A stretch of DNA of 32,000 nucleotides, taken from Fibrobacter succinogenes subsp. succinogenes S85. Its GTDB lineage: Bacteria > Fibrobacterota > Fibrobacteria > Fibrobacterales > Fibrobacteraceae. Location: assembly GCF_000146505.1 (NCBI RefSeq), contig NC_017448.1:30001-62000 (forward strand), read 5' to 3'. Under the pieces are notes generated by a model. That model did no database searches, was not told the DNA's origin, and saw nothing but the letters and a program-made list of their open reading frames with translations. A program made the translations under genes and the position numbers. Position 1 is the first letter of the stretch, and every line of letters begins with the position of its first letter. Positions 2,997-26,521 of this stretch are shown here, piece after piece.

Positions 2997-5087
2997 TTAT
3001 TCGTTTCCTTTCACAGAATTTGTAGCGGTTTCGTTGCCTGCTGCAGGGGCCGGCTGGACGTCGGCAATCGGAGCTACCGGCGGTTGGTCACCCGGGTCAG
3101 GCGGCGGAGTGTTTTCTTCTTCGCGCTTCTTTGCGAGTTCTTCCATGGCCTTGTACTGGCGGCTCTTCTTTGTACCGGTGAGCTTTTCGCCAGCCATGAC
3201 CTTGTCGATTTCTTCGCGGTCAAGCACTTCAAATTCAAACAGCGCTTCGGCGAGGTCGGTGAGCTTGTCCTTGTTTTCTTCAAGGAGTTCCCTTGCCTTG
3301 TTGTCCATGCGCTTGATCAAGTTGTTGATGGCGTTGTCGATTTTTTCCGCCATCATTTCGGACATTTCCTTCGGCTTACTGATTTCGCGTCCGAGGAACA
3401 CTTCGCCATCGGCGCGGCTGTAGCAGACCGGTCCGATTTCTTCGTCGAAGCCCCATTCCGTCACCATCTTGCGTGCAAGTTCTGTAGCGCGCTGGATGTC
3501 GTTACTTGCACCCGTGCTCTGGTGGTTGAAGAAAATGAGTTCGGCGAGACGGCCGGACATCATGATCATGATGCGTTCTTCGGCGTATTCGCGGCTGTAG
3601 CTCACCTGGTCGCGTTCGGGCAAACTCATGGTCACACCGAGAGCGCGTCCGCGAGGGATAATCGTAATTTTGTGGAGCGGGTCGGAGTGCTTGCAGAGAA
3701 GCGTCATGAGGGCATGGCCTGCTTCATGGTAAGCGGTGTGGCGCTTTTCTTCGTCGGTCATGAGGAGCGTGCGGCGTTCAGCACCCATGCTGAGCTTGTC
3801 GCGGGCTTCTTCAAAGTCGAGCATCGTTACTTTCTTGTTGTTGAACCTTGCGGCGAGGAGCGCTGCTTCGTTCACCAAGTTTTCGAGGTCTGCACCGGCA
3901 AGTCCCGGAGTTCCCTTAGCGACTGCCTTCACGTCGACATCATCGCCAAGAGGAACCTTGCGCTTCTTCAAGTGAACCTTCAAGATTTCTTCACGACCCT
4001 TGAGGTCGGGGAGACCCACCACAATCTGGCGGTCAAAGCGGCCCGGACGGAGGAGTGCCTTGTCGAGCACATCCGGACGGTTCGTGGCGGCAATCAAAAT
4101 CACGCCTTCGTTAGCGGTAAAGCCGTCCATTTCCACGAGCAACTGGTTCAAAGTCTGTTCACGTTCATCGTGACCGCCACCGAGACCTGCACCACGCTGA
4201 CGACCCACAGCATCGATTTCGTCGATGAACAAAATACACGGAGCGTTCTTCTTGCCGGTTTCAAACAAGTCACGCACGCGGGATGCACCCACGCCAACGA
4301 ACATTTCCACGAAGTCCGAACCCGACATGCTAAAGAACGGCACGCCTGCTTCGCCTGCAACTGCGCGGGCGAGGAGCGTCTTACCCGTACCCGGAGGGCC
4401 AACGAGCAAAGCACCCTTCGGGATGCGGCCACCGAGCTTGTCGTACTTCTTCGGGTCCTTCAAAAATTCAACGAGTTCCTGCAAGTCCTGCTTGGCTTCG
4501 TCGCAACCTGCAACGTCGTTGAACGTCGTCTTCTTCTGCGAGTTCAGCTGGCGCACCTGGCTCTTGCCGAACGAGAACGGGCTCTTACCGCCACCGCCCA
4601 TCTGACGGCTCATCATGATATAGAAGAACGCAATCAGCAAAATGGCTGGCAAGAATGCAACGAGAGTATCAATCCAGGTGGTCGATTCGTGAATGACCTT
4701 GACCTTCACGCCCTTGAAAGCTTCCCAAGTCGAAATCTGCTCGTTCGAAATATCGAGCATGTGGCTCTTGAAATGCTTGTTCTTCGTGTCGGTACTGTTG
4801 CGGGTGAACCTAGCAAGTGCGCTTTGGCTCTTTTTTGCCTCGGCGATTTCTTCCGGGGACATCTCGTAAGCGCCTTCGATAATCACGCCATCGGGAGTCT
4901 TCTGGAGCGTTAGTTCAGTAATGATCTTGGTTGAATCGCCCATCATGGCTAAAAATTCGGTGCGGGTAATATCCTTGCTGGAATCTTTCCCGGTCATGGG
5001 GAACATGACGAAAAGCATGAGGAGCATGATGAGAACAATGATAAAATTCTTGTTCTTAAACGGAGCTGGCTTCTTAGGTTGATTCAT
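2997..5087 (-). CDS. ftsH: ATP-dependent zinc metalloprotease FtsH
   Basis: Walker A GPPGTGKT, Walker [13 protein letters not shown] region [20 protein letters not shown], zinc site HEAGHA. The ORF is open to 5120. I prefer the ATG at 5087 (MNQPKK...), just ahead of the TM helix. Either start overlaps the tilS 3' end. Confidence 0.93.
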
Positions 5088-6255
5088 TATAATCCTTTTC
5101 TTTCTTCTCGCAAGATACAAATTTTGCGGCTGAAAGCGCGTCCTTGAACTCGCAAATCCAGACAGTATGCGCTATTTTGACGACGGAACGTCGGCGATAA
5201 ACCGCCCGAACCGGGATTTTCACGTGGGCAGGCTCCTTAGGACCGTAGAAAAAGCCAATCGGGAACCGAAAACCCTTTTCCGTGAGCCACAACCGGAACA
5301 TTTCGGACAGATCTGCATCCGCGTATTCGCGTAGAATTTTATTGAGTTTTTTCTTGTCTAATGAGACGAAAGACGAGAGACGAGAGACGAGAGACGCGTC
5401 ATCCTGAGGCGAAGCCGAAGTAAGCGGGAATCCCCTTGTGTCATCCTGAGCGAAGCCGAAGGATCTAGAGCACTTTGCCATCACTTTCGCGTACGCTCTG
5501 TCCGCAAGCCCCGCAATCTTGCAAAGCTGTTGGATTGCCCCCGGACATTCTCGTTCCAGATTCGGCAAAAACTCGTGCCTAATTTTGTTGCGTGCGAATT
5601 TTACATCCGCATTGCTTTCGTCCTCGCACCAGCTTAAACCATTCTCGCGAGCATAGGTGAGGAGTTCTTTGCGAGTGACGTTCAGGAACGGCCGGTAAAG
5701 AAAGACGAGAGACGAAAGACGAGAGACGAGAGACGTGTCATCCTGAATTATTCTTACTTCTTGAATCCCGCGGAGCCCGGCAAGCGTTGTCCCGCGCTTG
5801 AGACGCATATACATTGTCTCCGCCTGATCCCCTGCATGATGCGCAGTCACGATAGCTATCGTGACGCCCCCTTCTTCAATGTCATCCCGGACTCCGTTCC
5901 GGGATCGCCATTTTTTATTCAGAGCAATCTCGACTAGCGCTTTATATCTTGCGTCTCGTGCATTCTCTTCAAGCGAACCTTCTGCATTTTTCAGCGCTTC
6001 ACCATCTAGCTTCTTCAAGAAAAAAGGAACGTCATGCGACTTCGCAAATTCTTCTACAAATTTTGCGTCTCTGTCTGCCGTTCCTTCGCGTAGCCCGTGA
6101 TGCACATGCGCAATACCCAGCCATTCAATACCAAGCGCGGCGCTGTTCTCGATAAAATAATGCGCCAAGCAAATAGAATCCAAACCGCCCGAAACTGCAA
6201 GCAGCAGGCGCTTAAAACCATGATGGCGAATGTTTTCAACTAAATTGAGCGACAA
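5074..6255 (-). CDS. tilS: tRNA(Ile)-lysidine synthetase TilS (short form) carrying three in-frame repeat-derived insertions
   Basis: PP-loop SGGLDS near the N-terminus, [28 protein letters not shown] start at 6255. Repeat DNA is translated as [35 protein letters not shown] and SFGFAQDDT...[14 protein letters not shown]. Confidence 0.85.
5362..5465 (+). repeat. Composite short repeat: 5 heptads ([TA][GA]AGACG) followed by two GTCATCCTGAG(G)CGAAGCCGAAG units
   Basis: Read directly. The heptad array tgagacg aaagacg agagacg x3 spans 5362-5396. The gtcatcctgag units span 5398-5420 and 5440-5465. All of this lies inside the tilS coding sequence. Confidence 0.85.
5701..5747 (+). repeat. Second copy of the 5-heptad array (aaagacg/agagacg) plus TGTCATCCTGA
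   Basis: 5701-5735 is exactly 5 heptads. It is followed by tgtcatcctgaa, the same junction as at 5396-5407. The element lies inside tilS. Confidence 0.85.
5881..5907 (+). repeat. GTCATCC-N14-GGATC palindromic unit (8-bp inverted repeat atcccgga/tccgggat)
   Basis: The sequence gtcatcccggactccgttccgggatcg shares its GTCATCC...GGATC ends with the unit at 5440-5465. It lies inside tilS. Confidence 0.75.
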
Positions 6256-7439: not shown

Positions 7440-7730
7440 ATGGCTAAAAATAAAGATAAAGTGTTCTGCAAGGTTGCTGAAACCGCCAAAGAAAGCGATA
7501 TGATGCGCATGCGACGCATAGACGGCTCTCAAAATGGAGCCACGTTACGGACAAGAGTTATCCGAGACAAGACAAAGTACAACAGAAATTTGAAGCACAA
7601 GAAGTCCCTCGCAGACGCGGGGGATTTCCCTTTTTTATGGGGCGCTTACCCCTTCCATTCGTCTGTTAAGGCGCAGAAGAAATCAGTACTCCATAAGGCT
7701 AGCTTTGAGGAGTCGGCGATAAATGGTTGA
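7440..7730 (+). CDS. Small basic protein; candidate ArfA/BrfA-like factor expressed from a terminator-truncated (non-stop) mRNA
   Basis: A consensus SD AAGGAGG (7428-7434) sits 5 nt before the ATG at 7440. The product is lysine/arginine-rich (LRTRVIRDKTKYNRNLKHKKS). The nominal ORF runs to 7730 and overlaps the convergent abiEii 3' end, but a hairpin plus T-tract lies inside it at 7602-7637. Confidence 0.5.
   Translation: MAKNKDKVFCKVAETAKESDMMRMRRIDGSQNGATLRTRVIRDKTKYNRNLKHKKSLADAGDFPFLWGAYPFHSSVKAQKKSVLHKASFEESAING
7602..7637 (+). terminator. Intrinsic terminator-like hairpin plus T-tract located inside the 7440-7730 ORF
   Basis: The stem tccctcgc/gcggggga (7605-7612 with 7617-7624, one G-U pair) has the loop agac. 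It can be extended by aag/ttt and is followed by CCCTTTTTT. The U-tract is on the plus strand only. Confidence 0.55.
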
Positions 7731-8509
7731 ACATCTCGCTTAGCTTCGTTGAAATCGACTGCGTGGAATCGTTCTTTTAATAGTATTTTCAATTTAGCAG
7801 TTGTTAAGATTTCTGTAGAATTCCAGTGTCCAGTCTGTTCCATGCGCCTTTGCAAGTGTGGTAGATTGACGCTAGTATTCTGAGAAACATACCATACGAA
7901 ATCATAGAAATCGCGTCCTTTGACCCGGTTCTTCCAACCGCGACAAAGCAAAGCGTGGAGTTTCCCTGCAAAAAGTGAAGGCTTGTCGTAGAGCTTAACA
8001 GCAAAAGGTGAGGGCAAAAGTCGATACTTGTTTTCAAATGTCGCCAATTCAGGCGGATTTGTGTCCACCTCAAATTTGATTTTCAAGATTTCATTGCTTG
8101 GTATGGGCAATGGTGAATGCTTGGTTGGCATGATTTTCAGCAGGTGCTTTAGCGTGTTTCCCTTTAAGAATGCAGATTGTACTTGCGAATCGAGTGATTT
8201 AATCTTGCTTTCGACGATCATTTCCAAGCCGACTGCTTGGAGTTCTTGCTCAAGGATATCAAAATAATGTGGCAGTTCAAATTTTTCATCAACTTGGATT
8301 AACGAAAAATCCATATCTTCCGAGAAACGGTCTAGTCCATAGAAAATTCGGAGGGCTGTTCCTCCATAAAATGCGGCTTTTTCAAAAAAGCCGCCTCGCG
8401 AGAGTCCGCATAGAGCGACTTCCTGTGCAATTTCCTTGAGTGCGTTGCGGTAGTCAGATATGTTTTTGCAGTTGTATTTTGTGAGCATTGATTCTATTAC
8501 ACTTGCCAT
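7646..8509 (-). CDS. abiEii: Type IV toxin-antitoxin system toxin, AbiEii/AbiGii nucleotidyltransferase family (DUF1814)
   Basis: 287 aa. The N-terminal signature EIAQEVALCGLSRGGFFEKAAFYGGTALRIFYGLDRFSEDMDFSL is typical of the family. The start lies 2 nt after the abiEi stop, preceded by the SD GAGGT. Confidence 0.85.
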   Translation of the reverse strand: MASVIESMLTKYNCKNISDYRNALKEIAQEVALCGLSRGGFFEKAAFYGGTALRIFYGLDRFSEDMDFSLIQVDEKFELPHYFDILEQELQAVGLEMIVESKIKSLDSQVQSAFLKGNTLKHLLKIMPTKHSPLPIPSNEILKIKFEVDTNPPELATFENKYRLLPSPFAVKLYDKPSLFAGKLHALLCRGWKNRVKGRDFYDFVWYVSQNTSVNLPHLQRRMEQTGHWNSTEILTTAKLKILLKERFHAVDFNEAKRDVQPFIADSSKLALWSTDFFCALTDEWKG

Positions 8510-15363: not shown

Positions 15364-16020
15364 ATGAAACGCATCGTCCTTCTTTTGCTTGCTTTGTCTG
15401 TATTTTGTGTTGCTAAACCTGCGGACGAGTCTACGGATGCGCAGGCCTTGTCCGAAGAAGAGTCTTTGCGTGATTCAACGATTACGGTGTACATCCATCC
15501 TTTGAACTTTATGGTGCCGTATTCGCACTTTTGGGGCGGTCTCAATGTTCCGAACGGCATTACGGACTATCCGCAGTTCTACCTGACACTGGAATGGAAA
15601 CTGATGGAGAAGATTTCCTTGGTTACGGCTCCGCATTATGTACGCGTGGACCGTACCGAAGATGACAATGATGGTTACAAGATTTACGATATCGGCTTAC
15701 AGGAAAGTTTCCGCTTGTATGGTGTTGGTGGCAAGCGCTGGCGCTATTTCCAGGCGGGGATGATTGTGGATCACCTAAATATCGATACGGAAAAGCATGG
15801 GGACTTTAACGGCTGGCTGTGGGGCTTTATGCTCAATGGCGGCGTGAAGAAGGTCTTGAACGATGGGGAAGGTTTCTTTGGGCGTTTTGCCGTGTCCCTT
15901 GATGCCGGATTCGGCTATGTCTGGACGAGTAAATTTGAAGCGGATCGTAAGAACGCCTTCTTTAAGATGGACAAGGGCCTTGTCATCGATATTAACGCCG
16001 CTATTGGATTCCAGATATAG
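15364..16020 (+). CDS. Hypothetical exported protein, possible small outer-membrane beta-barrel
   Basis: Signal peptide MKRIVLLLLALSVFCVA, amphipathic strand-like segments, C-terminal ...AAIGFQI. Confidence 0.55.
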   Translation: MKRIVLLLLALSVFCVAKPADESTDAQALSEEESLRDSTITVYIHPLNFMVPYSHFWGGLNVPNGITDYPQFYLTLEWKLMEKISLVTAPHYVRVDRTEDDNDGYKIYDIGLQESFRLYGVGGKRWRYFQAGMIVDHLNIDTEKHGDFNGWLWGFMLNGGVKKVLNDGEGFFGRFAVSLDAGFGYVWTSKFEADRKNAFFKMDKGLVIDINAAIGFQI

Positions 16021-16061
16021 ACGAAAGAACGCCACTTTGTGGCTACAGAGTAGAGACGAGA

Positions 16062-16090
16062 GAAGCCTTGCTGTGCAAGGCTTTTGTCTT
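16062..16090 (+). terminator. Intrinsic terminator of the 12412-16020 gene cluster
   Basis: The stem gccttgc/gcaaggc (16065-16071 with 16075-16081) is extended by A-T pairs and followed by TTTTGTCTT. Confidence 0.6.
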
Positions 16091-16102: not shown

Positions 16103-16140
16103 TAAAAACGAAAAAGCACTTCTCATTGAGAAGTGCTTTT
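16103..16140 (-). terminator. Intrinsic terminator after tRNA-Asp copy 1
   Basis: The stem gcacttctc/gagaagtgc (16116-16124 with 16128-16136) is followed on the minus strand by TTTTTCGTTTTT. Confidence 0.7.
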
Positions 16141-16143
16141 AAG

Positions 16144-16219
16144 CGGGATAGACGAGGCTTGAACTCGCAACCTCCGGCGTGACAGGCCGGTGCTCTAACC
16201 AAAATTGAGCTACCACCCC
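16144..16219 (-). tRNA. tRNA-Asp (anticodon GTC), copy 1
   Basis: Manual cloverleaf of the reverse complement GGGGTGGTAGCTC...CCGGC-CTGTCAC-GCCGG...TTCAAGC...CTATCCCG. 76 nt, CCA not encoded. Confidence 0.9.
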
Positions 16220-16244
16220 AAAATCGTTTCCGATTCTTCGGTAG

Positions 16245-16571: not shown

Positions 16572-16669
16572 CCGGAAACGGTGTTTTTCGCGAAAAAAAG
16601 TGAAAAACTTTAAAGGAGATTCTTGCTCGGTGGCGGGCATGACAGAGGAACCGGTCCAATGATTTGAGT

Positions 16670-16703
16670 ATAAACGAAAAGACCTCTCTTCCGAGAGGTC
16701 TTT
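16670..16703 (-). terminator. Intrinsic terminator after tRNA-Asp copy 2
   Basis: The stem gacctctc/gagaggtc (16681-16688 with 16693-16700) has the loop ttcc and is followed on the minus strand by TTTTCGTTT. Confidence 0.65.
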
Positions 16704-16707
16704 GTCG

Positions 16708-16783
16708 CGGGATAGACGAGGCTTGAACTCGCAACCTCCGGCGTGACAGGCCGGTGCTCTAACCAAAATTGAGCTACCACCCC
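16708..16783 (-). tRNA. tRNA-Asp (anticodon GTC), copy 2
   Basis: Sequence identical to copy 1 over the 76 nt I compared by eye. Confidence 0.9.
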
Positions 16784-16818
16784 AGTGGTTTAATTCAGTC
16801 TTTCAACCGAACGACCCA

Positions 16819-16880: not shown

Positions 16881-16914
16881 TTAAAAAAGGAAATGCCCGC
16901 TTGGTGGCGGGCAT
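16881..16914 (-). terminator. Intrinsic terminator of the phoH-pgpH operon
   Basis: An 8-bp stem (atgcccgc/gcgggcat, 16893-16900 with 16907-16914) is followed on the minus strand by TTCCTTTTTT. Confidence 0.7.
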
Positions 16915-16954
16915 GACATCTCTCGTCTGTAGGCTCTTAGAGCCGTTCTCTCGT
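16915..16954 (-). repeat. AGACGAGAG-type repeat pair flanking a ggctc-tta-gagcc mini-hairpin, joined to GTCAT plus the terminator hairpin
   Basis: The minus strand reads acgagagaacggctctaagagcctacagacgagagatgtcatgcccgcc. This is the same repeat/GTCAT/palindrome grammar as the elements in tilS. Confidence 0.6.
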
Positions 16955-19231
16955 CTATCTCTGTCCAGGGTATTTGACGCGCGTGTGGTACGTGCCGTCA
17001 AGACTGTGGAGGAACGCTTCTTCAAGCTTGGAAAGTTCCTTTACAGACAAATTGCTCTCGTTGAACTGCCCATCCATGAACTTGTCAAGAATCGTCTTGT
17101 GGATCATGGATATAAGCGCTTCGGATGAGGTATCTGCCATGGAGCGACTAGTCGCTTCGATAACGTCAGCGAGCATGAGAATAGCGGTTTCCATGCTTTG
17201 CGGACGCGGACCCTTGTAGCGGAAATCTTCTTCCTTGACTTCTTTGCCGGTTTCCTTGGCGAGTTCTGTCGCCTTATGGTGGAAGAACTGGATAAGCGTT
17301 GTGCCGTGGTGTTCCTGGATGCCGGTGGCAACGAGTTCAGGAATCTTGTATTCCTTGGCAAGCAACATTCCCTGCGAAACGTGGCCGGTCAAAATCTTGA
17401 CGGACTGGTACGGATCAAGGTTGTTGTGCGGGTTTACGCCCTGCTTCTGGTTCTCGGTGAAGTATTCAGGGCGCATCGTCTTGCCGAGGTCATGGTAGAG
17501 CGCCATCACGCGGACAAGAAGCGAATTTGCGCCAATGCTTTCGGCAACGCTTTCGGCGAGGTTCGAAACCTGGATGCTGTGGTGGAACGTACCCGGTGCA
17601 AGTTCAGAAATCCGCTTGAGGGCCGGGCGGTTGAAGTCCGACATTTCCATGAGCGTAAGCACGGTCGTGATGCTGAAGACCTTCTCGACAACGTGAATCA
17701 AAAGCACGGATGCGACTGCGGTAAAGATGATGATGTTTGCACTTGCCGCAATCAGCGTTTGGTAGAACGTTGCGAAGTTGAAGCGGTTGCGGAGGAGGAG
17801 CATGATGCTCACAGATGCGGCTGCAGCAACGACGCCTGCAATCATGCTCCAGGCGAACTGCACACGGTAACGCATGCGGAAGAGCGGTGCGATTACGGCG
17901 ATGTTTACGACCAAGCTTGTGAGTGTTGCGGCAAGGTCGTAGCCGTTCAAAATGCCGTAGAATCCGGCAGAGAATGTCGCAAATGCAAGTCCCATGCGGG
18001 CATCGTAAAGCACGACTGCAATCACGGGCGTAAACGTAATCGGGTACAGCCACATGAAGTCAATTGCATCGGGGAGAATGCTTTCGGGTCTGCTGAGTGT
18101 TCCTGAAAGGTTATGGATAATCCAGAAAGCTAGGAGCTGCAATACGGTCAGGAATATGAGGCTCCACAGCTGGCGCGGCGTCTTGAACATCGTACGCGTA
18201 GGTGTGTAGAGGCAGAACATGATGAGGAGCGTAATGATGATGACAAAGACGAGCACGTTACCGTACGGGGCGGTGAGCATCTTTGAGTTTTCTTCATTCT
18301 GCTGTGCTTGCTGGAGTGCGTCAATTTTTTCAAGGATTTCCTTGGTGATTGGCGCGCCCTGCGCTACGATTTCCATGCCTCGCGGGACCATGCCCTTGAT
18401 AAGCGTGACCTTGTTGCTGGCGTCAAGCTTGCGTGCTTCAGTTTCTTTTTCGAGGTAGAATACGTTCGGGCTTGTAAAAACGTAGAGTGCTTCATAGAAG
18501 GCGCTCTGCAAACCCTGCTCGGCGGAGAACGAATTTTGCAGTTGGCCAAAAGCTTCTTCGATGCGGCGTTGCATCGGCTGAACTTCGCTGATTTCAAGCG
18601 TGCTTTCTTCGTTGTCCTTGATGAGCGAAATGTTCGGCTTGTTGTAGATGATGTTCTTGATTTGCTTGATGTTGTAGCTGTTGCAAAACAGGTTGACTTC
18701 GGTTTCGGTCTTGGCAAGGAGGGTGTTCGAAACACCTTTCTGCATCATCTGGTAGAACACGGACATCAAGGAATCACGGGCGATGGAATTCGTGCTGAGC
18801 GGCTTGATGGCGGTAATGGAAAGCCTTTGCTTCAACTGGTCGTAGATGCTCGACGCTTCCTTGATTTTTTCTTGCATGGAGGCGCTTCCGTCATCTTTGC
18901 TGCTGCTGATGACTGCTTGCATCTTGCCGTACTGTTCGAGCTTTTTGAGGTACTGTTCTAGTTCACGCAGCTGGCGCGTGGTTTCATCGGCGTTGAACTC
19001 AAAGATGGCATTGATCTTATCGGCGGCGCGAGCTTTTTCGTTCTGGATTTCCTGCTCGGTCTTCGGGACTTCAAACTTGAACGGGGCGACAATCGTCCTG
19101 GTACTGAGCTGTCCCAAGTGCGGGCGCTCGGCGCGGAGGGCGATATTCTTGTCCGGGAATAAGAGTATGGCGATGAGGATTAAGATAACCCAGCCAATAA
19201 ATAAATGAATCTTTTTCTCTTTCTTGTTCAT
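16955..19231 (-). CDS. pgpH: 7TM-receptor HD-domain (HDIG) phosphohydrolase, PgpH/YqfF family (candidate c-di-AMP phosphodiesterase)
   Basis: 758 aa with an N-terminal anchor, an extracytoplasmic domain and seven hydrophobic helices. HD domain: [12 protein letters not shown]...ALYHDLGK...QEHHGT. It lies immediately downstream of phoH, which is the usual synteny. Confidence 0.85.
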
Positions 19232-22059: not shown

Positions 22060-25000
22060 ATGTGGAAAGTTAAAGGTTCTATAAGATTCTTCTTATCTAT
22101 CCTTGCAACAGCTTTTGTTCAGGCGGGTGTGTTTATTTACGCCCAGAAAATTCTGTCGGGATCGTTCTTTGCCAAAGACGGTATCATCTGGCAGAACTTC
22201 ATGCTCCAAATCTTCTTCCTCGCGCCATACGTGTTGATGGTGTTCTTTGCGGGGTTCTTCACCAATAAGTTCTCGAAGAACAAGGTGATGGCGTGGTCGT
22301 CACTCATGATGACGCTATTTGTGATAGCGCAGTCGGTCTTGGTGACGGTCGATTTCCCGCGAATCGCATTCTGGCTCTCGATTGGGCTTAGCTGCGGTTT
22401 TGCCATCCACAGTGCGGCTAAGTACGCAATTCTTAAAGAAATGTTTGGCGTGCGCAATTTGAGCTACGCTAACGCATTCCTCCAGATATTCAGTATCAGC
22501 GGTATTATCGCGGCGTCCTGGCTTGCGATTGTCGGCGTGAACCTGATCAACTTGGACCAGCTCGTTTCTTACGAAGCAGTGCGTCGCATTACGGAAAAGT
22601 CCGTCGTGATTCCGTGGATTTTGACGGCAGTGAGCGTGCTGGGTACGGTTGCAAACTTCATGATTCCACGCGTGAAGTTCGAAGACTTGAACGTGAGCGT
22701 TGACAAGGTCAAGCGCCACTTGAGTCTCGGTTTCCGCGTGCCTACGCTCCGTGCGTCTATCATCGCCCTTTCGATGTTCTGGGCTTTGGCTCAGGTGTTC
22801 GTGTTGATTTACCAGGACGTGTCCGGTTCTTCGACCGTGAACATGATGCAGGACTACATGTCGTTTGCGATTGTGGGTCTCATGGTTGGTACGATTGTGG
22901 CTGCGCACTTCTCCAAGGACTTTATTGAATCCGGCTTTGTGCCGCTCGGCATGTTTGGCGCCTCGATTTGCATGTTCCTCGTGCCGTTCCTTGTACATCC
23001 GGTTGCACTTGTGCTTCTTTACTCCTTGACCGGTTTCTTTGGCGGTCTCATTTTGGTGCCGGTGAATGCGCTTTTGCAGTATAACACGCGTCCGAATAAC
23101 TCCGGTTCCGTGATTGCTCTTGCAAACTTGATCCAGGCTGTGGTGCTTGTGGCGTTCCTGTTCGTGTTCACGATGATGGTCCGCAACACCGATGTCCGTC
23201 CGCAGAACTACTTCATTGGCCTTGCCGTGATTTCTGTGGGTGTATTCGTCTGGTCAATTTCGAACTTGCCGCAGGCTATGCTCCGTACGCTTTTACGTTT
23301 TGTGTTCAGCCGCTATAGAATCCGCGTGTTGAACGTGCAGAACATCCCGAACGAAGGTCCGATTCTCTTGGTCGGTAACCACCACAGCTTTATTGACTGG
23401 GCTATGGTGCAGATGGCTTCTCCGCGTCCGCTTTGTATTGCAAGTAACAAGGACCATTTTGACAAGTGGTACTTGCGCGCCGTGCTCAAGCGCTTGGGCA
23501 TGATCCGTATTGATAACCGCAATCCCAAGGTTGCGATGGATAAGATTCATGCAGCCCTCCTCGCAGGTAAGGCTGTCGTGATTTTCCCGTCGGGCGAAGT
23601 TTCCAAGTCTCCGCACGTGGAACCGTTTACGATTGATTATTCCTCCGCTGTCGATGGCACGAAGGCCCAGGTGATTCCGTTCTACATCCAGGGCTTGTGG
23701 GGCTCTAACTATAGCTATAGCTCTTCGAACATGTTCGGTGCTTCGGCTGAACGTTCTGTGACGGTCGCCTTTGGAGAAGCACTCCCGGCCAATACGCCGC
23801 CTAACGAAATCCGTGCTATTATCCGTCGCATTTCTATTGACGCTTGGAACTACGCTGTTTCGTTTGTGCATCCGATTGCCGATAGCTGGATTCGCACTTA
23901 CAAGAAGTATGTGAAGAACGGTCCTGCTATTTATAGCCCGGATGGCGCTCACTTCTCGGGTTACAAGCTGATGGGCGCAGTGATGGCTTTCCGCGGTTAC
24001 CTCAAGAAGACGCTTGGCAAGAACGAACAGAACGTGGGTATTATGCTCCCGCCGAGCCCTGCTGGCGTGATTGTGAACCTTGCGCTTTGGGTGATTGGCA
24101 AGACGAACGTGAACTTGAACTACACGTCTTCTGTCGAAAACGTGAAGTTCTGCTGCAATCGCGCTGAATGCTCGACCGTGATTACGAGCCGCCAGTTTGT
24201 GCAAAAGCTGAAAGGCCGTGGTAACGATTACTCGCAGATTGCATCGGACAAGGTGCGCTTGCTCTATGCCGAAGATATCATGAAGGAAATCCCGAAGGCA
24301 AAGATTGCTGCTTTCCTTGTGCTTTGCATCCTCATGCCGAGCTGGCTGATTCGCCTTGTGTTTGTGAAACATCGCAACATGGACGACAATGCTGTGATTG
24401 TGTTTAGCTCTGGCTCTGAAGGTACGCCGAAGGGTGTGGAACTTACGCAGCGCAACTTGATGGGGAATATTCAGCAGCTCGCTTGTATTTTGAACGTGAG
24501 CCGTGGCGATGTGATGCTCTCGGAACTCCCGCTGTTCCATAGCTTTGGCCTTACGGTGACGACGCTCTTGAACCTTACGGAAGGCTGCCCGATTGTGGCT
24601 GTGGCTGACCCGACCGACGTGAAGACGATGTCTCGCGTTTGTGCGGAATTCCAGGTCACGTTCCTTGTGGCAACTCCGACGTTCCTTCGCGCCTTTACTG
24701 TGAGCCGCTATGTACATCCGTTGATGTTCAAGTCTGTGCGTATCATTATCGCTGGTGCTGAAGCGCTCCGTCCGGAACTTGCAACGGCATTCCGCCTCAA
24801 GTTCGGTAAGGAAATTTACGAAGGTTATGGCTGTACCGAAACGGCTCCGGTGGCCTCGGTCAATACCGAAAATACGTTGTTCGATGACTATACCACTTTG
24901 CAGGTGAATAACAAGCCGGGTACGGTTGGCCCAGCGCTCCCGGGTACGCAGTTCTTGATTGTCGATCCTGAAACAAACGAACCGCTCCCGACTGGTGAAG

Positions 25001-25485
25001 CGGGCATGATTCTCATTGGCGGTTGCCAGGTGATGAAGGGCTACCTCAAGGATGAAGACCGCACGAAGAGCGTGATTGTCCAGAAGGATGGCATACGCTA
25101 TTACCGCACGGGCGACAAGGGCTATCTTGATGAAGACGGCTTCCTTACGATTGTGGACCGCTACAGCCGCTTTGCTAAGCTTGGCGGTGAAATGATTAGC
25201 CTTGGCGCTGTCGAAAAGAAAATTCAGGATACGCCTGTGTTGCAGGGTTGCGATTACGTTGTTACGGCAATCCCGGATGCCACGAAGGGTGAAAAGATTG
25301 TTCTTTTGTACCAGGGCGAAAAGGATCCGAAGGATGTGCTCTCGGAATTGCGTGCAAGCGGCATGCCGCCTCTCATGCTCCCGTCCGCTGCGTTTAACGT
25401 GGATGTGATGCCGAAGCTTGGTTCTGGCAAGGCTGACTTTGTGACCGCAAAGAAGATGGCAAAGGAACTGGTGGAGAAAAAGTAA
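22060..25485 (+). CDS. aas: Triple-fusion lysophospholipid transporter (MFS, LplT-like) / PlsC-type acyltransferase / acyl-ACP synthetase (Aas-like)
   Basis: 1141 aa. About 12 hydrophobic helices occupy the first roughly 400 aa. The HX4D acyltransferase motif GNHHSFIDW follows. Adenylation motifs: SSGSEGTPKGV, YGCTETAP, YRTGDKGYLDEDGFLTIVDR, GKAD. Confidence 0.85.
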   Translation: MWKVKGSIRFFLSILATAFVQAGVFIYAQKILSGSFFAKDGIIWQNFMLQIFFLAPYVLMVFFAGFFTNKFSKNKVMAWSSLMMTLFVIAQSVLVTVDFPRIAFWLSIGLSCGFAIHSAAKYAILKEMFGVRNLSYANAFLQIFSISGIIAASWLAIVGVNLINLDQLVSYEAVRRITEKSVVIPWILTAVSVLGTVANFMIPRVKFEDLNVSVDKVKRHLSLGFRVPTLRASIIALSMFWALAQVFVLIYQDVSGSSTVNMMQDYMSFAIVGLMVGTIVAAHFSKDFIESGFVPLGMFGASICMFLVPFLVHPVALVLLYSLTGFFGGLILVPVNALLQYNTRPNNSGSVIALANLIQAVVLVAFLFVFTMMVRNTDVRPQNYFIGLAVISVGVFVWSISNLPQAMLRTLLRFVFSRYRIRVLNVQNIPNEGPILLVGNHHSFIDWAMVQMASPRPLCIASNKDHFDKWYLRAVLKRLGMIRIDNRNPKVAMDKIHAALLAGKAVVIFPSGEVSKSPHVEPFTIDYSSAVDGTKAQVIPFYIQGLWGSNYSYSSSNMFGASAERSVTVAFGEALPANTPPNEIRAIIRRISIDAWNYAVSFVHPIADSWIRTYKKYVKNGPAIYSPDGAHFSGYKLMGAVMAFRGYLKKTLGKNEQNVGIMLPPSPAGVIVNLALWVIGKTNVNLNYTSSVENVKFCCNRAECSTVITSRQFVQKLKGRGNDYSQIASDKVRLLYAEDIMKEIPKAKIAAFLVLCILMPSWLIRLVFVKHRNMDDNAVIVFSSGSEGTPKGVELTQRNLMGNIQQLACILNVSRGDVMLSELPLFHSFGLTVTTLLNLTEGCPIVAVADPTDVKTMSRVCAEFQVTFLVATPTFLRAFTVSRYVHPLMFKSVRIIIAGAEALRPELATAFRLKFGKEIYEGYGCTETAPVASVNTENTLFDDYTTLQVNNKPGTVGPALPGTQFLIVDPETNEPLPTGEAGMILIGGCQVMKGYLKDEDRTKSVIVQKDGIRYYRTGDKGYLDEDGFLTIVDRYSRFAKLGGEMISLGAVEKKIQDTPVLQGCDYVVTAIPDATKGEKIVLLYQGEKDPKDVLSELRASGMPPLMLPSAAFNVDVMPKLGSGKADFVTAKKMAKELVEKK

Positions 25486-25598
25486 GCGGCGGAGCCGCAG
25501 TTACTAGTTATTAGTTGGTAGTTATTAGATTAAAGTTTGGCGGCTATGCCGCGATTATTATGACTAATGACCATTGACTAATGACTAAAGACTAGGAG
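25486..25598 (+). repeat. Composite structured element: two GCGGC-N3-GCCGC mini-hairpins, each followed by about 5 heptad repeats (TTAnTAG array, then TGACTAA array)
   Basis: Read directly. Mini-hairpins at 25486-25498 and 25540-25552. Heptads at 25501-25535 and 25561-25595. The two arrays are reverse-complementary apart from G-U positions. Confidence 0.8.
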
Positions 25599-25603
25599 AA
25601 AAA

Positions 25604-26521
25604 ATGAAAAGCTTGACCCCTGTACGTACTGCGCGTTTGGTTGCATCACTGATTGCAATCCTTGGAATGTTCTTCTTTGCTGCCGAACGTGTGCTTGCGA
25701 AAGTCTGCGTTATGGCAAAAGACGGCGTGCAGATGGGGCTCAACCGTTATTCCAATTCGTTCACGGGGCGCTTTGCTGCCGAGAATTTCTCGGATGACAA
25801 AAAGCTCTTGGATGTTCTCCGTCAGGCGAATGAGCTTTTCCCGATTGCAGAGAAAGTCTCGCTTGCCTTGTTCATTATTTGCTTGATTCTCTTTATCGTG
25901 GCTGCTTTTGGAATTGCGTTCCCGAAGCAGTTCTGCCATGTACTTGTGGCGATGAAGCTCCTCAAGTGGCAAGACGGGATTGTTTTGCAGGATATGAAAC
26001 TCTCGGGAACTCCGTCAGAGGGGCCTAGCGTTTCTGATAAACTTAAGGAACTTTGCGGAAAAATTGCCGCTGCTGCGAAAAAAGTTCAGCCGAAGTACTG
26101 GATTTTTATCGGTTGCTCGCTCGTATTTGTGCTGGTTCTCGTCTTTGGCGTGCGCGGTTGCTCGGCTCCGAGCGTTTTCGGTGGCTCGCAGGCTGTGACC
26201 GATGATTTGAACGGACAGACTTTGTACTATATCCAGGCACAAAAGTCGTTCTTTGCAAAGACGAATAAGGTGGGCGGGCCGAAATCCCTCCAGATGCCGG
26301 ATTCTTTAGTGTCTGACTACTTTACGTATCGCATTACGGGCGGTAAGTTTACGGCGACTTTGAACAAGAATGTCAAGGATTGCCCTGCCGGTACCCGCTG
26401 GTCGGTGAGTGCGGCCACCAAGGGAATTTTCACCTTGGATCTAGTGCTTTATCGCTCTGCGCCAAAAGACACCAATTGCGTGTTCATTTCGCCTGATTTT
26501 AAAAATCTCGGAAGAAAGTAA
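25604..26521 (+). CDS. Hypothetical three-TM membrane protein with a C-terminal extracytoplasmic domain (possibly pilin-like)
   Basis: SD AGGAG lies 5 nt before the ATG. Hydrophobic helices at about residues 10-30, 85-105 and 165-185. The C-terminal roughly 110 aa contain two Cys and a pilin-like string (YYIQAQKSFFAK...YFTY...F.A). Confidence 0.6.
   Translation: MKSLTPVRTARLVASLIAILGMFFFAAERVLAKVCVMAKDGVQMGLNRYSNSFTGRFAAENFSDDKKLLDVLRQANELFPIAEKVSLALFIICLILFIVAAFGIAFPKQFCHVLVAMKLLKWQDGIVLQDMKLSGTPSEGPSVSDKLKELCGKIAAAAKKVQPKYWIFIGCSLVFVLVLVFGVRGCSAPSVFGGSQAVTDDLNGQTLYYIQAQKSFFAKTNKVGGPKSLQMPDSLVSDYFTYRITGGKFTATLNKNVKDCPAGTRWSVSAATKGIFTLDLVLYRSAPKDTNCVFISPDFKNLGRK

Follow-up and report, generated by a model that had tools for sequence, protein, structure and literature searches.

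Tagged hairpins and heptanucleotide arrays in the tilS gene of Fibrobacter: probable mosaic repeats tolerated as protein loops

Palindromic elements located in frame within protein-coding genes have been described in Rickettsia as RPEs (as cited in PMC3733652), and intragenic copies of the GTAG- and CGTC-tagged repetitive extragenic palindromes (REPs) are known in several species (PMC3733652). Members of the CGTC superfamily, which includes Rickettsia RPE-4 and RPE-6 and Neisseria dRS3, feature a tag, often TGTC, a stem of 8–9 bp starting with A-T, a loop of 4–5 nt and a short tail, and "apparently lack a dedicated transposase" (Di Nocera, De Gregorio & Rocco 2013, PMC3733652). REPs, BIMEs and REPINs are mobilised by RAYT tyrosine transposases (PMC2817692, PMC3116915). 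Among simple repeats, heptanucleotides are reported to be the commonest long ones in bacteria (Mrazek 2007, as summarised in PMC4679880): direct repeats of 2–6 heptamers are found in Beggiatoaceae, cyanobacteria and Bacteroidetes, mostly just upstream of gene starts and occasionally within open reading frames (ORFs) (MacGregor 2015, PMC4679880). Repeats recalling both kinds are reported here in tilS, the gene for tRNA(Ile)-lysidine synthase, in a 32,000-nt stretch of Fibrobacter succinogenes subsp. succinogenes S85 (NC_017448.1, positions 30,001–62,000). This stretch is indicated as the window, and coordinates refer to it unless a locus is named.

The tilS inserts are likely to be selfish mosaic repeats, translated as tolerated loops, with a fast turnover at three hotspots (A, B and C) acting as landing pads. 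Copies elsewhere were looked for in a 430-kb Fibrobacter sample, composed of the window, five tilS loci (L001, L003–L006) and 39 genome fragments.

The tilS inserts and their variability

The gene and the elements inserted in it are located as follows.

5074–6255, minus strand: tilS, short two-domain form, an intact ORF of 393 aa hosting the insertions
5880–5910, plus strand: hotspot A insert, a complete TGTC-tagged REP, from sequence and RNA fold
5701–5735, plus strand: hotspot B insert, part 1, a five-heptad array of the [AG]AGACG type, found by Tandem Repeats Finder (TRF); CGTCTCT on the coding strand, 10 residues
5736–5746, plus strand: hotspot B insert, part 2, a TGTC tag with a single REP arm, ATCCTGA, lacking its partner arm; read (I)QDD
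5362–5396, plus strand: hotspot C insert, part 1, a five-heptad array found by TRF; read as 11 residues
5397–5439, plus strand: hotspot C insert, part 2, a chimeric unit of two element types, by comparison with intact units in L003, L004 and L005
5439–5465, plus strand: hotspot C insert, part 3, a TGTC-tagged QDD-type unit, ATCCT ... AGGAT; read SFGFAQDD

The tilS product is a PP-loop ATPase (PF01171, E = 6e-48, matched in two stretches). Its nearest named relatives are TilS proteins of Fibrobacter species, and phmmer matches it to the structures 1wy5 (Aquifex), 1ni5 (E. coli) and 3a2k (Geobacillus). The gene is essential in model bacteria. In the F. succinogenes-like clade TilS stops after the second domain, without the C-terminal domain present in other Fibrobacterota homologues (P0129–P0143).

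A preliminary description of this DNA had reported two modules of five heptads followed by YGTCATCCTGA, along with GTCATCC-N14-GGATC units, all inside tilS and none interrupting its frame. All of them are found, the latter units at 5440–5465 and 5881–5906, and the translations given there are correct. The array at 5362–5396 reads TGAGACG, AAAGACG and three times AGAGACG, and is followed by CGTCATCCTGA at 5397–5407; the one at 5701–5735 reads AAAGACG, AGAGACG, AAAGACG, AGAGACG, AGAGACG, and is followed by TGTCATCCTGA at 5736–5746. TRF assigns them a period of 7, with 4.9 and 4.7 copies respectively, and the two 44-nt modules, array plus tag, are 93% identical. A three-heptad pattern matches six times in the window, only within these two arrays, where 0.01 matches are expected; GTCATCCTGA has three exact sites in the 32 kb, all within tilS.

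The GTCATCC units had also been described as palindromic. In the hotspot A REP the tag (5880–5883) precedes stem ATCCCGGA (5884–5891), loop CTCCGT, stem TCCGGGAT (5898–5905) and tail CGCCA, the whole being read on the minus strand as a 10-residue segment. Its 8-bp stem (-16 kcal/mol, z = -2.96 relative to shuffled sequences) makes it the only strong hairpin in the window tilS. The unit at 5440 forms only a 5-bp stem and folds no better than shuffled sequences (z = -0.65). The chimera at 5397–5439, where a CGTC tag and ATCCTGAGGCGAAGCCGAAG, from a QDD-type element, are joined to AAGCGGGAATCCCC, one arm of a ATTCCCGC-type REP, encodes 14 residues and also folds no better than shuffled sequences. 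The units at 5440 and 5398 were accordingly rejected as real hairpins on folding energy. At hotspot B the sequence 5736–5746 is considered a half-REP because the upstream GIQE codons are native to TilS. No Rfam family matches the tilS repeat region, even at E <= 10.

An alignment of orthologues, proposed in the preliminary description, finds the segments missing from solved TilS structures, from outgroups and from some Fibrobacter alleles, and their length varies between strains. Aquifex, E. coli and Geobacillus TilS show gaps at window residues ~114–127 and ~172–186 (phmmer); in distant TilS (P0128, 337 aa; P0129–P0143) sites A and B are empty and a short variable linker is found at the third site. 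By sequence comparison the three segments are additions relative to the ancestral protein. The opposite case envisaged earlier, a conserved ancestral TilS sequence without copies elsewhere, does not hold, as shown by insert-free outgroups and by copies outside tilS.

Variability was analyzed in 120 close orthologues (370–562 aa), where three hypervariable blocks contain 62, 67 and 88 different contents, and in 55 near-full-length metagenomic tilS alleles, found via conserved peptide words without reliance on gene calls, which feature 46–48 different contents per site. The length range at each site, among 55 sequences (complete metagenomic ORFs, the window gene and the five other tilS loci), is as follows.

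Site A: 9–79 aa; window, 27 aa
Site B: 10–115 aa; window, 25 aa
Site C: 24–138 aa; window, 45 aa

The hotspot B array, for example, is missing in L003 and L131 and is shorter by three heptads (7 aa) in L130. Five alleles, L155, L160, L161, L167 and L171, have an empty site A, and the last four of them also have little or nothing at site B; every F. succinogenes-like allele is filled at site C, and most also at A and B. Several of the alleles empty at A and B encode proteins of 339–347 aa. The window TilS has ~54 extra residues (18 + 15 + 21), so that ~339 aa, not the ~320 aa previously estimated, are left on removal, in line with the insertion-free alleles and with outgroup P0128. The number of sites, three, had been correctly recognized; the idea of a single insertion at each has to be abandoned, the sites being hypervariable hotspots with up to 5–6 tandem or nested units. 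Between the window and F. succinogenes L001 the contents of all three hotspots differ at a synonymous divergence (dS) of the core of only 0.10, which indicates a fast turnover.

Repeats can mislead assemblers, the window itself deriving from a short-read assembly (P0001), and low-complexity segments might be old TilS linkers. An origin of the inserts from mis-assembly, or from ancestral sequence, can be given almost no credit: the same architecture is found in isolates UWB16, UWB13, UWB4 and F. succinogenes and in dozens of independent metagenomes, copies of the units are present outside tilS, and outgroups and solved structures do not contain the segments.

Hairpins and heptad arrays as DNA units, inside and outside tilS

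On the coding strand nearly every unit ends with ATGAC, a sequence found 171 times in 20.6 kb of hotspot DNA versus 12 times in the other 49 kb of tilS. Exactly at the AT, 51 of the 171 sites anchor a perfect 8-bp stem, and a further 51 feature the 5-bp ATCCT...AGGAT form, of the QDD type; at random positions stems are of 2–3 bp. Variants of the stem arms are compensatory (ATCCCCGC/GCGGGGAT, ATTCCCGC/GCGGGAAT, ATGCCCGC/GCGGGCAT, ATCCCGGA/TCCGGGAT, ATTCCGGC/GCCGGAAT). Read on the other strand, the unit consists of YGTC, an 8-bp stem starting with AT, a loop of 4–6 nt, the second arm and a C-rich tail. Units occur in tilS as head-to-tail runs (five in a row, for example, at site C), as half-units and as chimeras.

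An identical 23-nt REP, ATCCCCGCCTGCGCGGGGATGAC, is read as DPRLRGDD at site A of four alleles and as IPACAGMT at site C of three others, which indicates DNA, rather than peptide, as the unit. Similarly, an identical 78-nt composite, where a second hairpin element is nested in the loop of an ATGCCC...GGGCAT REP, is found at site A of UWB4 (L004) and at site B of UWB16 (L006) and, judged by peptide, also at site C of P0092. The sequence evidence shows the inserts to be repeats at the level of nucleic acid and not conserved peptides.

The same elements are found in spacers and in other genes, and are missing from outgroups, as anticipated by the proposal that REP-like, mostly intergenic elements had colonised TilS loops. 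The 430-kb sample contains 23 perfect TGTCAT REPs, about one per 19 kb, versus none in shuffled sequences; 13 of the 23 are outside long ORFs. One intergenic REP of UWB16 (L006, 16977–17001) has a 25-nt core identical to that of the hotspot A REP of the window, and its core also equals that of the site A unit of tilS in its own genome. In the window, spacers contain the following elements.

16893–16957, plus strand: full composite of inverted REP, heptads and GTAG-tagged hairpin (fold z -2.49)
16612–16644, plus strand: degenerate REP copy (..GGTGGCGGGCATGACA) adjoining tRNA-Asp
16048–16063, plus strand: remnant of an AGAGACG array (GAGTAGAGACGAGAGA), followed by a hairpin with a T-run, 3' of gene 15364–16020
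25487–25594, plus strand: heptad arrays AGTTATT x4.3 and ATGACTA x5.0, each after a small GC hairpin

The composite at 16893–16957 contains, in order, ATGCCCGC-TTGGTG-GCGGGCAT-GAC, TCTCTCGTCT, a GTAG-tagged GGCTC-TTA-GAGCC and GT-TCTCTCGTCTA; its inverted REP ends in ATGAC, and the minus-strand gene 16955–19231 takes its stop codon (TAG) from the final CTA of the composite. The 430-kb sample contains about 25 copies of the composite TCTTTCGTCTTTCGTCT-GTAG-hairpin-GT-TCTTTCGTCTAA. In these ~25 loci, such as window 16929–16957 and L003 6386–6431, the GTAG-tagged hairpin is nested inside a CGTCTTT heptad array, and the composite often makes up the whole spacer between co-directional genes, where it supplies a terminal stop codon as well as a purine-rich leader to the following start. 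In L151, L157 and L181 the same composite is found in frame at site A of tilS.

The preliminary description had treated heptad repeats and GTCAT palindromes as one kind of element. Their fusion is real; the arrays, according to the sequence data, are a class of their own, often fused to REPs and much more widely distributed. Period 7 accounts for 136 of the 371 tandem-repeat rows reported by TRF in the 430-kb sample. The arrays contain 40 heptad unit sequences, with a copy number peaking at 4–5 and a modal length of ~31 nt (4.4 units); in the AGAGACG class 26 of the 72 arrays are exactly 31 nt long. A common modal length for ~40 unrelated units is not predicted by simple slippage. Within tilS the period-7 rows number 104, and the hotspots contain all of them except two; more than 20 unit types occur, and the arrays often begin within a few nt of ATGAC. 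When one genome per species was scanned for three AGAGACG units, at least 120 stretches were found; among the matches listed ~40 are in Fibrobacterales and the others in Rikenellaceae/Alistipes, Gemmatimonadota, Planctomycetota, Acidobacteriota, Nitrospirota, Sorangium, Kapaibacterium and others. Among the same matches the arrays often adjoin other heptads (GAGGCGA, GAGACTA, GGGACGG) and, sometimes, GTCAT hairpins. Only 9 heptad-pattern matches were found in 2.9 million viral contigs, and a phage origin of the arrays was dropped.

Of the 105 heptad arrays of the 430-kb sample, 70 are outside long ORFs and 35 have 60 or more codons of an ORF on either side. The hosts of ten in-ORF arrays, checked by Pfam, are an HrpA-like helicase, CobA/HemD, MnmE (two species), a GT4 glycosyltransferase, FeoB (two), an RlmL-like methyltransferase, an Omp85 protein and an ABC ATPase. 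In MnmE (L030 5370–6875; L104 6848–7999) the heptad/REP modules occupy the same G-domain region in two species; other in-frame modules of this kind are found in FeoB (L085, L075), in the HrpA-like protein (L025) and in Omp85 (L052, four arrays in tandem). In these hosts the heptads are read as SLVSRLSS or RRETRDER, and the tag as QDD or VILS/CHPE: a reading in either orientation argues against a selected peptide.

Some further features were observed near the intergenic elements. In the spacer 25487–25594 the stop of gene 22060–25485 is followed by hairpin GCGGCGGAGCCGC, the AGTTATT array, hairpin GGCGGCTATGCCGC and the ATGACTA array, which ends just before the GGAG-N6-ATG of the gene at 25604, a layout like that of the Beggiatoaceae TAACTGA repeats upstream of starts. 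About ten arrays are directly preceded by CAAAnnTAgaaatt (e.g. L082 1585–1631, L111 1838–1881, L098 2875–2920, L041 5112–5155). This is the reverse complement of TAnnTTTG, the Bacteroidetes-type -7 promoter box; relative to a divergent promoter of that kind, the array would span about -12 to -45. Two copies of tRNA-Asp(GTC) are carried by a 108-nt repeat of 87% identity (16113–16220 and 16677–16784), and tRNA-Val(TAC) adjoins the first of them. Next to tilS, the listed ftsH ORF (TTG at 5120) overlaps the end of the gene by 47 nt (5074–5120); called overlaps of 14 or 32 nt in related loci indicate that the true ftsH start is probably further downstream. Upstream of tilS, in a strain-variable segment containing NERD-domain genes in L001 and L005 and RelB/ParE in L004, the minus-strand ORF 7646–8509 (287 aa) corresponds, by its length and position, to the AbiEii-family (PF08843) gene of L003.

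Reading frame, protein structure and proposed mechanism

All 55 metagenomic alleles maintain a single, stop-free frame through the three hotspots. The sole frameshifted contig, L185, lacks one nucleotide in the conserved codons around residue 101, away from the hotspots; other apparent premature stops were discarded, being C-terminal read-through of the tblastn match. ATGAC occupies two of the frames, with 134 and 37 occurrences, and is absent from the one giving TGA. In the core, dN/dS (the ratio of nonsynonymous to synonymous divergence) is 0.07–0.16 over 287 codons, indicating that tilS is functional, whatever its load.

These data bear on two alternatives. According to the first, the inserts would not be translated, being cut from the mRNA or bypassed by the ribosome. 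Mobile bypass elements are found in some yeast mitochondria, and ribosome bypass in phage T4 gene 60, and GC-rich hairpins within coding sequence do resemble bypass elements. Skipped inserts would, however, leave frame and stops free to vary, whereas the 55 alleles, with 46–48 contents per site, are all in frame and stop-free and ATGAC avoids the TGA frame; moreover, half of the non-AGAGACG arrays in the 430-kb sample contain stops on both strands (CGTCTCT and CCCCATA are stop-free on both). Lack of translation is thus very unlikely. The second, that tilS is a contingency locus toggled by heptad slippage (phase variation), is extremely unlikely. Heptanucleotide arrays are prone to slippage and their copy number does vary between tilS alleles, but none of the 55 is out of frame through the hotspots, and the gene, as mentioned, is essential in model bacteria. 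In the one length difference that could be traced, in an allele pair including a DDESLVFLY form, the varying segment LVSRLSS corresponds to 21 nt, three heptads, and the frame is kept; this agrees with the earlier remark that only certain numbers of 7-nt units preserve it.

The location of the inserts was evaluated on a predicted structure. AlphaFold on a Fibrobacter-only alignment gave a poor model (predicted local distance difference test, pLDDT, 53.7), which was replaced by a run on a diverse alignment (mean pLDDT 86.7; predicted template modelling score, pTM, 0.86). This model matches Aquifex TilS 2e21, of the short two-domain form (E = 3e-19; TM 0.72 on target). Its confidence dips at residues 121–130, 171–180 and 271–290, the three sites. 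Site A is placed between helix 95–112 and strand 132–136, site B between strands 167–170 and 184–187, and site C after helix 240–267. The loop location suggested in the preliminary description thus agrees with the predicted model, which fits a position of all three sites in surface loops.

It had been left undecided whether the elements are tolerated or domesticated: the data speak for tolerance and not for domestication, an identical REP being read in two frames and contents changing at very low synonymous divergence. Domestication would imply that the loops, or hairpins of a tilS-ftsH mRNA, have been recruited, to bind tRNA or a partner or to regulate translation or the stability of the mRNA, and that selection maintains them. 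The constant filling of site C, and the frequent filling of A and B, in F. succinogenes-like alleles would agree with it, and the uniform orientation of REPs in tilS would suit a role at the RNA level. Yet close relatives differ in content, in length and even in the frame in which the same element is read, insertion-free alleles exist, the same units recur, in either orientation, in numerous unrelated proteins, and all three hotspots have been remodelled at a core dS of 0.10. Domestication is, overall, improbable.

The preferred explanation, selfish mosaic repeats tolerated as loops, may be outlined as follows. Two kinds of element, YGTC-tagged stem-loops and ~31-nt arrays of 4–5 heptads, often fused into mosaic composites, would have entered tilS at three loop positions. 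An occupied site would become a landing pad, the first insertion attracting more, through the homology it offers to gene conversion and through hairpins serving as targets. Further units would then join head to tail or enter hairpin loops, or be exchanged with other copies through recombination or gene conversion, and heptad arrays would change by slippage. Since TilS is needed, only in-frame, stop-free configurations would survive, and the inserts would consequently be translated as variable, probably disordered, surface loops, presumably neutral, next to a catalytic core remaining under strong purifying selection. Primary spread may depend on hairpin-directed cleavage and joining of single-stranded DNA, RAYT/IS200-like, and/or on ectopic recombination. 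Insertion-free alleles show a GAC codon at both empty sites, a hint that the GTC tag may belong to the target and not to the element.

Several points weigh against this explanation. The E. coli RayT protein had no tblastn match in ~640 kb of Fibrobacter fragments, which are not whole genomes, and neither a transposase nor another mobilising function was found in the fragments searched. Neither terminal inverted repeats nor target-site duplications flank the tilS inserts, and no clean pair of empty and filled alleles was established, at nucleotide resolution, for the tilS sites. The one-sided orientation of REPs in tilS, 171 versus 10, is not predicted by purely random insertion. Surface exposure is taken from a predicted model and translation of the inserts from conservation of the frame, and the alleles are phylogenetically related, so that their counts are of non-independent events.

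Alternatively, the arrays may belong to an undescribed composite system, in which a dedicated nicking or templating enzyme moves ~31-nt arrays of many heptads together with tagged hairpins, remodelling the loops of essential proteins. Compared with passive slippage and recombination, this is a tentative idea, possible rather than probable, as is its extension to Rikenellaceae, Gemmatimonadota, Planctomycetota and others.

Three other readings were dropped. Miniature inverted-repeat transposable elements do not fit, as these have terminal inverted repeats of 15–30 bp and target-site duplications, neither of which flanks the tilS inserts. No splice or intein signatures are present for an intein- or intron-like reading, and CGTCTCT is not an X XXY YYZ motif, as a slippery frameshift site would be.

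Relation to described systems and implications

The Fibrobacter hairpins feature the main characters of the CGTC superfamily. The tag is an unpaired CGTC or TGTC (CGTC at 5397; TGTC at 5736, 5439 and 5880); TGTC is found in 21 of the 23 perfect sample copies, the superfamily allowing TGTC or CCTC. The stem is of 8 bp in 20 of the 23 copies, always starting with AT. This does not apply to the QDD-type units, which have 5 bp and a long, variable interior, nor to the half-unit 5736–5746. Loops, of 4–5 nt in the superfamily, are of 4, 5 and 6 nt in 4, 6 and 10 copies (6 nt in the window unit). Tails, whose consensus in the superfamily is CCA, are C-rich (CGCCA, CACCA, CTCCT, CCCCT), with CCA in some only. 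Superfamily copies are many, dispersed and predominantly extragenic; in the 430-kb sample 13 of the 23 are outside long ORFs, and some copies lie within genes. In contrast with its prevalent head-to-head dimers, tilS units are arranged head to tail; they are, in addition, fused to heptad arrays and nested in one another. Fibrobacterota is not among the five phyla listed for CGTC repeats.

RPEs are similarly small palindromic repeats found both in spacers and in frame in conserved, functional genes, to whose products they add peptide segments and whose orthologues may be without them. In Fibrobacter, by contrast, several kinds of unit accumulate within a single gene, always at the same three sites, and strains that are nearly identical elsewhere differ in what these sites contain. 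Heptad arrays are involved, and the repeats reside in a free-living gut bacterium instead of an intracellular one with a reduced genome. With REPs, BIMEs and REPINs the inserts share tagged hairpins in mosaic clusters, and Fibrobacter has GTAG-tagged hairpins as well, within its CGTCTTT arrays; inverted doublets, however, do not dominate in tilS, and no RAYT gene was found in the ~640 kb of fragments.

Cyanobacterial short tandemly repeated repetitive sequences (STRRs) are comparable heptanucleotide repeats. The Fibrobacter arrays resemble the described heptanucleotide sets in being tandem 7-nt units, with few copies per set and many, mostly intergenic, loci. They differ from the TAACTGA sets in having ~40 unit sequences, instead of one, with a common modal length of ~31 nt, in being fused to tagged REPs, and in lying inside conserved enzymes rather than at protein ends.

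In-frame REPs are therefore already known, as RPEs and as intragenic GTAG and CGTC repeats. Literature searches for the tilS repeat sequences themselves, and for Fibrobacter with REPs or heptamers, returned nothing relevant, and Fibrobacter is absent from the REP surveys consulted. What appears new is the host lineage, the coupling of hairpins to heptad arrays of many sequences, and hypervariable, multi-unit hotspots in a gene essential in model bacteria.

The linkage, in one composite, of CGTC-type REPs, for which no transposase is known, with heptanucleotide arrays offers a concrete place to seek a mobilising activity. If an undescribed composite system does operate, it would be a natural generator of strain-level diversity in peptide insertions. 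The tilS hotspots are ready-made strain markers, and the repeat inserts explain the inflated, erratic protein lengths and the low-complexity segments of Fibrobacter annotations. They may also be seen as a natural mutagenesis, indicating which loops of TilS, MnmE, FeoB and others tolerate 10–100 extra residues. The phenomenon of selfish DNA inside protein-coding genes, known from Rickettsia, would extend to a free-living and ecologically important rumen bacterium, in a more dynamic form, where landing-pad loops gain, lose and swap units faster than synonymous sites diverge.

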